This document shows positions 45,174 to 49,211 of a stretch of 64,000 nucleotides of DNA, piece after piece (the stretch's first letter is position 1; every line of letters starts with the position of its first letter). The position numbers were made by a program, and so were the translations under genes. A model generated the notes under the pieces. The model did no database searches and had not been told where the DNA came from. It saw only the letters and a program-made list of their open reading frames with translations. Source of the DNA: Myxococcota bacterium (lineage in GTDB: Bacteria; Myxococcota_A; UBA796; CAJQPC01); the NCBI GenBank assembly GCA_036229005.1, contig JAZAMN010000047.1:1-64000 (forward strand), read 5' to 3'.

Positions 45174-46043
45174 ATGGCTGTTCTCGTCAACTCTGAGACC
45201 CGCCTGCTCTGCCAGGGCATCACGGGCTCCGCTGGCAGCTTCCACTGCGGCCAGATGATGGACTACGGCACCAACCTGGTGGCCGGTGTGACCCCGGGCA
45301 AGGGTGGTCAGCGCTTCAACAGCAGCGTGCCCATCTTCGACACGGTGAAGCAGGCGGTGAAGGAGACCGGCGCCAACGCCTCGGTCATCTTCGTGCCGCC
45401 CCCCTTCGCCGCGGACGCCATCCTGGAGGCCATCGACGCCGGCATCGAGCTGGTGATCCCCATTACCGAGGGCATCCCCGTCAAGGACATGATCCCCGTG
45501 AAGGCCTACCTCGAGGCCTCCGGTGCTCGGATGATCGGCCCCAACTGCCCCGGTGTCATCACCCCCGGTCAGTGCAAGATCGGCATCATGCCCGGTCACA
45601 TCCACACCCCCGGTCGCATCGGCGTGGTCAGCCGCTCCGGCACCCTGACCTACGAGGCCGTCGGTCAGCTCTCCGCGCTGGGCCTGGGCCAGTCCACCTG
45701 CATCGGCATCGGTGGTGACCCCATCATCGGCACCAAGCACATCGACGCCCTCAAGCTCTTCAACGACGACCCCGACACCGACGTCATCGTGATGATCGGC
45801 GAGATCGGCGGCACCGCCGAGGAGGAGGCCGCTGCCTGGGCCAAGGACAACTGCGACAAGCCCATCGTTGGCTTCATCGCGGGCGCCACGGCACCTCCGG
45901 GCCGCCGCATGGGCCACGCTGGCGCCATCATCTCCGGCGGCAGCGGCACGGCCGAGGCCAAGTACGCCGCGATGGAGGAGGCTGGCTTCCACCTGAGCCG
46001 CTCCCCCGCCGAGATGGGCAAGGTCGTGGCCGGCCTGCTCTGA
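45174..46043 (+). CDS. sucD: Succinyl-CoA synthetase alpha subunit
   Basis: [37 protein letters not shown]. Confidence 0.97.
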
Positions 46044-46065
46044 GAGCGGTCTGGTCGTGATTGAG

Positions 46066-46095
46066 CGGGCCTCCCGGAGACGGGGGGCCCGTTTT
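46066..46095 (+). terminator. Intrinsic terminator of sucCD
   Basis: CGGGCCTCCCG-GAGA-CGGGGGGCCCG followed by TTTT. Confidence 0.8.
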
Positions 46096-46230
46096 GGTTT
46101 TGGGGGGCGGAGGGGCTGGTTCTGCTGGGGCACGGTCTCCTCAACTCCGGGGAATCTGCGCCCTTGGGGCTGTAGGGGGCTGGTGGTGCCTGCGAGGTGC
46201 GGCTTGGCCTGAGTATGCGTCGGGCGCCTC

Positions 46231-47753
46231 TCCAGGTCCGGGTCGAGAGGAGACGGCGTCGGTGGTGGCTCTCCGTAGAGAGCGGCGTTCCAGGTTCGGG
46301 TTGAGAGGAGACGGCGTCGGGGGTGACTCTCCGTAGAGAGCGGCGTTCCAGGTTCGGGTTGAGAGGAGACGGCGTCGGTGGTGACTCGCGGTAGACAGCG
46401 GCGTCCCGGGTCCGAGCGCCGTCTGTCTTTTCTGAAGGGGGCAAGCCCCCTTCGGCAGCGGAGCTGCCTGACCCATGTCGATTCACAGGACGCGCCCGAA
46501 GGGTCGTCCTTGAATCTGACCGGGGGACCCCCTACGACCCCCACGGAGGCTGCGCCTCCATGGGCGCTTTCGCCGAGCCCTTCGCCCGGCACGCCGGGCT
46601 TGGTCCGCGCCGGTCCCCCAATTGCGAAACCAGACTCGGACTGATCGCGGGATGAATCCCGCGGTCCGGTCAGGTTTGCGCAAGCCCCCCTCGGCGTCGG
46701 GTCGCAGGACGACCTGCACTCCGCGCTGTTTGGGTGAAGGGCTGCAAGCAGCCCCAAGCCTGCGGCTTGCCCAAACAACGTGAAGAGCAGCCCATCGGGC
46801 CGACACGCTCCATGGTTGTGGGAGCCGGGTCCGAGCGGGGGTGAGGCACTTCCCGGTTCGGGTCGAGAGGAGACGGCGTCAATGGTGACTCGCCGTAGAC
46901 AGCGCCGTCCCTGGTCCGGGTCGAGAGGAGACGGCGTCGGTGGTGACTCTCCGTAGAGAGCGGCGTCCCGGGTCCGAGCGCCGTCTGTCATTTCTGAAGG
47001 GGGCAAGCCCCCTTCGGCAGCGGAGCTGCCTGACCCATGTCGATTCACAGGACGCGCCCAAAGGGTCGTCCTTGAATCTGACCGGGGGACCCCCTACGAC
47101 CCCCACGGAGGCTGCGCCTCCATGGGCGCTTTCGCCGAGCCCTTCGCCCGGCACGCCGGGCTTGGTCCGCGCCGGTCCCCCAGTTGCGAAACCAGACTCG
47201 GACTCTCGCGGGATGAATCCTGCGGTCCGGTCAGGTTTGCGCACGCACCAAGGCGGTCCGGAGGACGGCCGCAGGGGGCGGCGAAAGCCTCCAAGCGACC
47301 GGCGGTTCGCTTGGAGGACGTAGGGCCCTCCCGGCGTCGGGGCCGAGCGGAAACGGCGTCGGTGGTGACTCAGGGGCCGAGCCGGGGCGGGTCGAGGGGA
47401 GACGGTGTCAATGGTGACTCGCCGTAGACAGCGGCGTCCCGGGTCCGAGCGCCGCCTGTCTTTTCTGAAGGGGGCAAGCCCCCTTCGGCAGCGGAGCTGC
47501 CTGACCCCCGGGGGACCCTCGCCGGTCCCCCAGTTGCGAAACCAGACTCGGACTGATCGCGGGATGAATCCCGCGGTCCGGTCAGGTTTGCGCAAGTCCC
47601 CCTTGGCGTCGGGTCGCAGAGCGACCTGCACTCCGCGCTGTTTGGGTGAAGGGCTGCAAGCAGCCCCAAGCCTGCGGCTTGCCCAAACAACGCGAAGAGC
47701 AGCCCATCGGGCCGACACGCTCCATGGTCGTGGGAGCCGGGTCCGAGCGGGGG
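46231..47753. repeat. Non-coding mosaic of three copies of a multi-hairpin element, each preceded by 58-bp units; candidate structured RNA or BIME/MITE-like element
   Basis: Copies at about 46231-46841, 46851-47243 and 47385-47753 share near-identical modules; no credible protein in any frame. Confidence 0.9.
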
Positions 47754-47765
47754 CCCAGAGTCAAA

Positions 47766-47795
47766 GAGGGCGTGACCCCGAAGGATCACGCCCTC
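47766..47795 (-). terminator. Intrinsic terminator of ndk, possibly bidirectional
   Basis: Minus strand GAGGGCGTGATCC-TTCG-GGGTCACGCCCTC-TTT. Confidence 0.75.
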
Positions 47796-47870
47796 TCTCT
47801 CCTCAAAGGAGCGAATCGACTTCAGTCAGATCCGAGCAGGCCACCTTCGGTGCCCTACTGCGAATCGACT

Positions 47871-48284
47871 TCAGTGCAGCTCAGTCGCAGCAAAGAAGTA
47901 CGCGATCTCCTGAGCAGCGGTCTCGGGAGCGTCCGAGCCGTGCACAGCGTTCTCGCCGATGGAGTCGGCGTAGAGCTTGCGGAGGGTGCCCTCGGCGGCC
48001 TCGGCGGGGTTGGTGGCGCCCATGATCTCGCGGTTGCGCTTGATGGCGTTCTCACCCTCGAGCACCATGACGACGCAGGGGCCGCTGGACATGAAGTCGG
48101 TCAGCTCGCCAAAGAAGGGGCGCTCGCTGTGCACAGCGTAGAAGCCCTCGGCGACGCGCTTGCTCATGTGGATCTTCTTCATCGCGACGATGCGGAGACC
48201 CTCCTCTTCGAAGCGAGCGATGATCTTGCCGATCACGCCCTTGGCGGTGGCGTCGGGCTTGATGATGGAGAAGGTGCGCTCCAT
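47871..48284 (-). CDS. ndk: Nucleoside diphosphate kinase
   Basis: [33 protein letters not shown]. Confidence 0.98.
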
Positions 48285-48425: not shown

Positions 48426-49211
48426 ATGGCTGGCGTGCGCGACGAGTACCACTTCTCGATGTCCATCGGAAAGGGCCTGTTCACCGAGCTGCTGACGGCC
48501 GCGCTGCCCTACAAGATCCAGAGCGGACGCTTCCACCTGACCGACAACCTGCGCAGCGCCGCGCGCCAGCTCCAGGTCAAGCAGAAGGTCGCCGGCCTAC
48601 TCGAAGGCCCAGAAGGCTCCGCGCTGGTCCGGGTCAAGGACCGCGCCGCCAGCGTCTGGCACAACCGCCGCGATCAGGTCTACGACACCCTGGACAAGGT
48701 CCTGCGGGTCGAGGGCGACTGGGAGGTCCTGCTCGACGCCGACGGCTCCGAGTTCACCTACGGCGAGCAGGAGATCGGCGCCGAGGCCTACTTCAAGGCC
48801 GTGGCCACCGGAAAGGCCGTGCTGCTGGGCGAGAACCTGGAGCTGCCCTTCCGCCTGGAGAAGCGCGTCGGCGCCGAGGTCCACCTGGGCGGCATCCACT
48901 ACGACAACCACAAGCAGGAGATCGTCGGCCAGGTCCAGGGCGTGGGCGTCGACCTGGGCGGGAGCCTGCTCCTCAAGCTGCTCAACGACGTGCTCGGCAA
49001 GGTCCTGGAGCAGCAGGCCCAGGAGCGCCTGAACCCCGTCACGGTGCTCCCCAAGGCGCAGTTGGATGAGCTGGTCGCCGGGGCCGCCACCGCCATCAAG
49101 CTCAAGATGGAGGTCTCCGACGTCGCCCTGGAGGTGGGGGAGGAGATGATGACTCTGAAGGTGCGCTTCGGGTTCACCCAGCTCCAGCTTGAGGACGGCC
49201 GCACCCGCTGA
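48426..49211 (+). CDS. Hypothetical protein, possibly TULIP-like elongated fold
   Basis: GGAGG SD, upstream TATACT, strong GC3 bias; the fold is only a guess. Confidence 0.75.
   Translation: MAGVRDEYHFSMSIGKGLFTELLTAALPYKIQSGRFHLTDNLRSAARQLQVKQKVAGLLEGPEGSALVRVKDRAASVWHNRRDQVYDTLDKVLRVEGDWEVLLDADGSEFTYGEQEIGAEAYFKAVATGKAVLLGENLELPFRLEKRVGAEVHLGGIHYDNHKQEIVGQVQGVGVDLGGSLLLKLLNDVLGKVLEQQAQERLNPVTVLPKAQLDELVAGAATAIKLKMEVSDVALEVGEEMMTLKVRFGFTQLQLEDGRTR

Follow-up and report, generated by a model that had tools for sequence, protein, structure and literature searches.

REP, REPIN and BIME repeats, together with RAYT genes, are the closest described systems to the element reported here. These repeats are intergenic, multicopy, lineage-restricted and 3'-end-favouring (PMC3116915, PMC3686654, PMC3733652, PMC8266576), lie preferentially between convergent rather than divergent genes (PMC3733652), and show tandem clusters, compensating changes in variable stems and use as IS targets. 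The REP unit is a 20-40-nt hairpin or inverted doublet. E. coli TnpA-REP needs a GTAG tag (PMC8266576), and a 'double foot' form of REP exists (PMC6006769). Bacterial MITEs (ERIC, RUP, Correia/NEMIS, bcr1) are summarised in PMC3733652 as non-coding, structured, intergenic elements. Multicopy covarying motifs are a known, common category, with 250 MRSC candidates among 4714 regions in PMC11109978, and complex folds are present among the catalogued repeat families of PMC2267715.

The block analyzed here (46231-47753) fills the gap between the convergent ends of sucD and ndk in the window, i.e., the whole stretch of 64,000 nt that was analyzed, from a myxococcotal genome (G000). We consider it moderately probable that the block consists of three tandem, reshuffled copies of a non-coding repeat confined to the genus, which is predicted to form stacked hairpins and a perfect four-way junction, likely as single-stranded DNA, and which likely spreads non-autonomously, in a REP/REPIN-like manner, via an enzyme encoded elsewhere. 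The repeat was observed to be multicopy and intergenic, with species-specific sites, a structure kept by compensating changes, and optional modules. The family is an uncatalogued, unusually elaborate form of a known repeat type; no description of it, or of any four-way-junction intergenic repeat, was found in searches of open-access article text.

The intergenic, multicopy, lineage-restricted and 3'-end-favouring distribution, the tandem clusters, the compensating stem changes and the use as IS target were shared by the element, which is multicopy, extragenic and found mainly in convergent or co-oriented gaps. On the minus strand, the palindrome of its B module is identical to the core of the Pseudomonas fluorescens group I REP, as given in Table 1 of PMC3116915 and in PMC3686654. 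GTAG was paired in most G000 copies; beta and gamma copies, in which its partner is CTAC, resemble the 'double foot' form (PMC6006769). GAAG/GAGG was present in the window and C26, and GGAG and others in the congeners. The element differs from REP/REPIN in having a multi-branch core of ~210 nt as its unit instead of a short hairpin or doublet, in its non-conserved GTAG, and in the lack of a cognate RAYT in cis. No unpaired 5' GT[AG]G stood ahead of the palindrome, and most units were single and asymmetric, with inverted pairs only at G002:C160 and G001:C63. Because the P. fluorescens REP core is matched, yet a cis RAYT is lacking and GTAG is not conserved, we describe the repeat as working like REP/REPIN and do not file it as a formal member.

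Like the MITEs in PMC3733652, the element is non-coding, structured, intergenic and in the same size range. It differs from them in its terminal inverted repeats (15-30 bp), which were absent at eight loci (longest exact end match, 7-8 nt). No consistent target duplication or direct repeat was found at these loci, whose ends are placed only approximately. MRSC-65-2, in PMC11109978, is also a multicopy covarying motif with inconsistent gene context that possibly acts as DNA; it is one long stem found in many phyla, whereas the present element is multi-branch and genus-restricted.

The modules, their order and the three copies proposed in the initial annotation were recovered by a repeat finder, pairwise alignment and public-run contigs (Table 1), and the hairpins named there folded as described. 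The repeat finder returned six 58-nt A units and three B modules (46355-46474 family, 94-96% alike), and matched copy 1 to copy 2 over 300 nt (94%) and to copy 3 over 237 nt (97%). Pairwise alignment agreed that copy 3 lacks 46475-46519 (C1) and 46529-46604 (C2 interior) while retaining the C2 closing stem. Copy 3 is preceded by an additional partial A (47345-47371), and position 47604 lies outside the conserved E stems, which begin at 47608. The GGGTC/GACCC closure of B folds in the window and, as judged by eye, is absent from most paralogues. The A leader showed no 31-bp phasing (lags 58, 62-66).

Table 1. Coordinates of the block modules and flanking features in the window.
Feature	Position	Strand	Remarks
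sucD, succinate-CoA ligase alpha subunit	45174..46043	+	NF004230 above cut-off; flanking gene, outside the element
Intrinsic-terminator-like hairpin 3' of sucD	46063..46094	+	Passes terminator scan
Copy 1 leader, three G-rich 58-nt A units	46231..46404	+	Unit number differs among strains; run X3 joint 46244>46361
Copy 1 B head	46405..46474	+	T-rich run, G5-loop-C5 hairpin (46434-46453), stacked GGA-triloop hairpin (46454-46468), ACCC
C1, inserted member of a separate hairpin family (14 genome sites)	46476..46520	+	TGACC direct repeat on either side at this site
Copy 1 C2, long form (closing stem and optional interior)	46522..46619	+	Interior also at C71
Copy 1 D, optional long hairpin	46621..46682	+	Versus C71 copies: 5 double Watson-Crick changes, none broken
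Copy 1 E, predicted perfect four-way junction	46696..46804	+	P0 46696-46699/46801-46804, P1 46700-46714, P2 46715-46789, P3 46790-46800
Copy 2 leader, two A units	46847..46966	+	Repeat finder
Copy 2 B, C1, C2 (long), D	46967..47243	+	Repeat finder, alignment
Hairpin block found once in this assembly, with a cut-off E opening at its end	47245..47345	+	Run X2 joint 47325>46686
Copy 3 leader, partial A and one A	47345..47437	+	Repeat finder
Copy 3 B, short C2 (47510-47531), D	47438..47595	+	Alignment
Copy 3 E, predicted four-way junction	47608..47716	+	Junction scan; copy 3 47456-47718 matched by congener-only model
14-bp hairpin 3' of ndk	47765..47796	-	Fails terminator scan, no T run
ndk, nucleoside-diphosphate kinase	47871..48284	-	NF001908 above cut-off; flanking gene

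The block had been placed between two facing terminators; the hairpin on the sucD side fits this description, and the one on the ndk side lacks a T run. Open reading frames in the block had flat GC across codon positions, with third-position values of 0.65-0.71 versus 0.91-0.92 in sucD and ndk. They lack the third-position bias of real genes here, in agreement with the earlier view that no credible protein is encoded.

The conserved unit is an asymmetric core of ~210 nt with nine predicted helices, to which optional modules are added; a fixed molecule of 450-600 nt, as initially envisaged, gives way to this core at one site of a dispersed family. The most constant feature of the family, as predicted from sequence, is the four-way junction of E. 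A perfect gap-free Watson-Crick junction was possible in 26 of 30 full cores versus 3 of 300 shuffles, and the four cores without it were degenerate copies. The two sides of the closing helix of E change together (GTCG/CGAC, GCG/CGC, GTG/CAC), and with its four core bases the junction could branch-migrate by one step. Under DNA parameters the junction fold was obtained for copy 3 on both strands; the minimum-energy fold of E in copy 1 differed.

The branched fold appears to be kept while the letters change. The D stems of two subfamilies differ at five places, each time by a double Watson-Crick change, and the internal mismatch remains a mismatch. In the congener alignment, both sides had changed in 22 of 67 pairs, with none of 500 shuffles as high and slid controls at 5-6, a count inflated by relatedness and by the choice of structure, which was drawn on one alignment row and so favoured over the slid controls. 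The covariation in the stems is real.

Perfect four-way junctions are contained in RNAs such as the hairpin ribozyme and U1 snRNA, and Holliday-junction model substrates are built of four helices meeting with no unpaired base. The predicted E core likewise has four helices meeting in this way, with one migration step possible. It differs in lacking an Rfam match and conserved ribozyme loops, and in being made of a single strand whose one long stem carries two opposed hairpins.

By BLASTN and a covariance model, the E core had 17 matches on 10 contigs of G000, near contig ends on seven. The joint model matched 17 times in G000, 8 in G001 and 13 in G002 (both congeners), with zero matches in a third congener (G003, 95% complete) and in 18 genomes of other genera of the family. 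Three subfamilies were distinguished by inner E stems and optional parts. D was present only in the C47, C26 and C71 copies, the C2 interior at C47 and C71, and C1 in the window only. At C17, C38, C65, C70 and C71 of G000, a second family was observed downstream of E with its head reversed, giving large inverted mosaics. Copies were also interrupted within E by IS elements, namely the start of a transposase at C46 (34460 onward), which we take to be IS3-like, and the end of another IS at C38:1-140.

The C1 hairpin family occupied 14 sites in G000, where it also stands alone in tandem. It keeps its ends, and its inner stem is wholly replaced yet still paired (C4:43812-44003, C27:14227-14469, C10:357, C56:23662); tandem runs of 4-5 occur. 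Like the CGTC-tagged palindromes in PMC3733652, members start with CGTC/TGTC, end with GACG and may directly follow a stop codon (C27). The likeness concerns C1 only, and its stem lacks the starting AT pairs of the CGTC REPs described there and has a hypervariable interior. The spread of CGTC repeats without a cognate transposase is called an open question in the same paper.

A looser head pattern (T-rich run, G5-loop-C5 hairpin, optional hairpin, C run) gave 79 hits in all and was found at 61 intergenic places of G000 versus 0-3 in ten shuffles. This head is common to at least six intergenic hairpin families of G000 with otherwise unlike sequence (e.g., C2:82195-82990, C43:28234-28751, C62:117984-118209), and the pattern was present in 21 of 121 genomes of the order. 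In a genome labelled Pseudomonadota (L080:3001-3046), a B-like head lay between convergent genes, identical to a C70 copy at 40 of 46 nt, with the rest of the element absent. Given this lone head, heads of this kind may occur far more widely than the complete element.

When 40 relatives were searched by BLASTN with copy 1, two matches were returned, both in coding DNA and due to chance. With a model based solely on G000 copies the congeners went undetected (0/100); their homologues were reached only through the looser head pattern, so more distant members may still be missed. A model built only from nine congener copies matched copy 3 of the window (47456-47718; 45 bits, E 5.5e-11), which independently confirms the homology. 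The order-wide search with the full model found only partial heads, in 3 other genomes of 146, and the phylum-wide search one weak match in coding DNA among 148, which was rejected. A pattern scan of genomes yielded 27 hits, all due to chance, and later scans only chance hits or known congener-type copies. The first metagenome scan was empty and the second gave two loci of the known congener type. All 17 viral pattern hits were below significance, and the plasmid and phage collections contained no significant match.

Element sites differ between species. At 18 of 19 congener loci a flank was homologous to G000, and in no case did a G000 copy come within 600 bp. Three sites that are filled in G002 correspond to gaps of 7, 21 and 35 nt between the flanking genes in G000. 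In three congeners, the element was absent after sucD or ndk, where short spacers and other genes are found. Flanking genes differed from copy to copy without a recurring protein family, and no recurrent partner gene was found among 184 G000 neighbours or among the congener neighbours. Heads lay between convergent genes in 22 of 54 cases (background, 205/923) and between divergent genes in 6 of 54 (228/923), tandem heads not being independent in these counts. No replication-strand bias was found (25 versus 21, with noisy skew), and the analysis revealed neither an insertion boundary nor an excised form nor a strain-level empty site.

For the genes next to sucD and ndk in the three congeners, G000 has no clear homologue (window 46043-47871 versus L074-L079, L081-L086), which suggests that the block marks the junction of a deletion or a rearrangement; the congener contigs stop a few kb further on. 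A 16-nt direct repeat is present at the 3' end of ndk (window 47811-47875, spacing 49), with an extra unit in runs X2, X3 and X11. The 261-aa gene divergent from ndk (window 48426-49211) had no NCBIfam match, and its position is kept in three congeners.

Strains represented by contigs from public runs varied by whole modules. The run X3 contig omits two A units. In the X2 contig, the unique hairpin block runs into a full E start, in the place where the window has a cut-off E fused to A at a common 8-nt word, and the hairpin block is accordingly read as a module that may or may not stand between D and E. At one congener locus, too, the A-like leader is tandem and parts of E are repeated. These strain differences and the covariation bear out the initial proposal that the element is structured and non-coding and that whole modules are the units of its amplification and recombination. 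In the alignment, copy 1 combines the C1 and long C2 of copy 2 with the D variant and E of copy 3. Local recombination is the best explanation of the triplet: a two-unit allele XY would have been duplicated and the first pair then collapsed, with a crossover in the common C2-end/D stretch (46605-46642) producing a chimeric copy 1. The mixed composition of copy 1 is as expected from a crossover after XY duplication. Other hairpin families, such as C1, and IS elements would have entered the element secondarily.

Loop types and mismatches were compared for signs of DNA or RNA, both drawn from related copies. Three-nucleotide loops made up 87 of 249 distinct hairpins (32 copies) versus 243 of 1285 chance hairpins in coding DNA and 3 of 34 terminator-like hairpins. 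GNA or its complement TNC accounted for 30 of the 87 triloops (19 of 243 in chance hairpins), with all four middle bases used and both strands represented (13 GNA on plus, 17 TNC, i.e., GNA on minus); C-G closed 74 of the 87. Only 4 of 23 tetraloops were GNRA/UNCG, counting either strand. GNA is the sole triloop giving a very stable DNA mini-hairpin, the tested RNA counterparts being much less stable, according to PMC13037366. In the long E stem, fixed oppositions on the plus strand were C.A in 30 cases versus G.T in one (16 related copies, ~8 distinct positions), and the former are wobbles if the minus strand is considered; the bias was weaker in the congeners (10 versus 6). Copy 1 folded at z -3.4 on plus and -7.2 on minus (20 shuffles each). 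In the strand comparison, z-scores did not separate plus from minus. DNA-type loops on both strands and minus-leaning wobbles favour a DNA-level fold over the plus-strand RNA initially proposed, and the three substitutions cited for it as G-U wobbles (46781, 47221, 47604) were single-copy C>T changes, one of them outside the conserved stems.

A structured RNA, multicopy and non-coding or retroposed, was the main idea of the initial annotation; covariation by itself cannot tell DNA from RNA, and the multi-branch fold, the C.A oppositions (G.U pairs in a minus-strand RNA) and the gap-free junctions known in RNAs all speak for this idea. We nevertheless judge it quite unlikely, as the loops are of DNA type, optional modules come and go, and the promoter and terminator scan of the block found neither a sigma-70-type promoter nor a terminator. 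No catalogued RNA family was matched by the window or 11 family loci at the gathering score of Rfam 15 (best sub-threshold E 0.14), including group I/II introns, HEARO and omega RNA, and ARAGORN returned no tRNA or tmRNA. A reverse transcriptase was likewise absent: PF00078 was not detected in the three carriers G000, G001 and G002 (assemblies 75-95% complete), and one sub-cut-off fragment was found in the non-carrier G003. In the RNA runs X8, X11 and X13, available as contigs that inform on neither ends, strand nor absence, sucC, sucD and ndk were covered and the window element was not; this is not evidence, since an adjoining gene was uncovered too. One 156-nt RNA-run contig (depth 3.8) was a variant paralogue of the element. 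An assembly artefact, suggested by the position of many copies near contig ends and by the lack, among public runs, of a single read or contig covering the whole block, is most improbable as the source of the three-copy arrangement, since every junction was bridged by public-run contigs: left flank to A and copy 3 to ndk by X2 and X3, copy 1 to copy 2 by X1 alone (46733-46966, zero differences; possibly the source sample), and copy 2 to copy 3 by X1, X2, X3 and X4 (four runs, three studies). Fixed substitutions also distinguish the copies. In X2 and X3 the depth between copies 1 and 2 was low, a hint of an allele with two copies that amounts to uncovered sequence only.

Spread with no dedicated enzyme, by host recombination, slippage and template switching, with palindrome repair yielding compensating changes without selection, would suit the frequent tandem arrays, partial duplications and module joins at short common words, the absence of a partner gene, and the fact that nearly all double changes run from Watson-Crick to Watson-Crick. 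It is unlikely all the same, because arrival at new, unrelated sites requires an insertion step, junction-proximal bases, bulges and the D internal mismatch have been retained and not repaired, and the non-random occurrence of GNA loops argues for selection acting on the fold. Placement at gene 3' ends, and the use of GNA mini-hairpins as phage priming sites and N4 promoters in PMC13037366, could instead indicate a host-maintained DNA structural site (protein binding, priming, supercoiling relief) or an mRNA 3'-end stabiliser that benefits the cell. This appears highly unlikely for sites that different species do not have in common, for a family not found in G003 or the 18 other family genomes, and for copies broken by IS elements and deletions. 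A bolder and decidedly unlikely reading is that of a new class of selfish DNA without its own transposase. Its fold would imitate a Holliday junction whose core can move by one step, and its mini-hairpins would resist SSB; in this way it would recruit junction-processing or priming enzymes of the host, which would do the cutting, copying and insertion. The G5/C5 head, common to at least six families in this genome, would serve as the handle.

Should the family prove to be no more than a REP-like repeat, its importance would lie mainly in the assembly breaks and local rearrangements that it brings about in this lineage. It also offers a precise, testable substrate, with a predicted invariant junction core, variable arms, DNA-type loops, natural module variants, and carriers and a non-carrier in one genus. 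For RNA discovery it is a caution, as the strong covariation of this family most probably stems from DNA folding, and loop type offers an inexpensive way of telling the two apart. One C2 word may resemble the nick sites of rolling-circle plasmids; it was not conserved in the C71 copy.

Under the favoured reading, a REP/REPIN-like repeat moved in trans, the fold would form in single-stranded DNA, as in REP/REPIN substrates, and an enzyme encoded elsewhere would read structure, not terminal repeats. The first candidate would be a Y1/HUH (RAYT-like) nuclease. PF01797 (IS200/IS605 TnpA) was absent in G000, PF04986 (Y2 transposase) was found only in G002 and G003 and did not track the element, and no adjacent transposase was found. 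RAYT-like genes numbered 5 in G000, 3 in G001 and 5 in G002, all carriers, and 0 in the non-carrier G003; the five in G000 have the NHVH/NHIH and YI[HY]LNP motifs of subclass 2.1, as described in PMC6006769. Four of them adjoin 31-bp arrays and none adjoins this repeat. Heads were found at 0 of 30 RAYT-like loci of the order and the element model at 0 of 11 loci of the genus, most of which adjoin 31-bp arrays (assemblies incomplete, many copies at contig ends). RAYT-like genes were present in 45 of 121 order genomes, mostly without the element, and their association with heads was weak (12/21 versus 33/100, p 0.048, kin not being independent).

The downstream ends of IS110-like elements showed no resemblance to the element. 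IS110-like elements were observed to end at the same motif of one 31-bp array family (C15, C27, C29, C48 and C50 ends), once just upstream of a RAYT-like gene. The RAYT-like family itself (~258 aa; G000 C21, C24, C27, C32, C52; G001/G002 L173-L179) is below the NCBIfam cut-off and is missed by PF01797. As many as 18 copies are present in a single genome of the family, and a GTGTCG...CGACAC hairpin lies directly upstream of RAYT-like genes.
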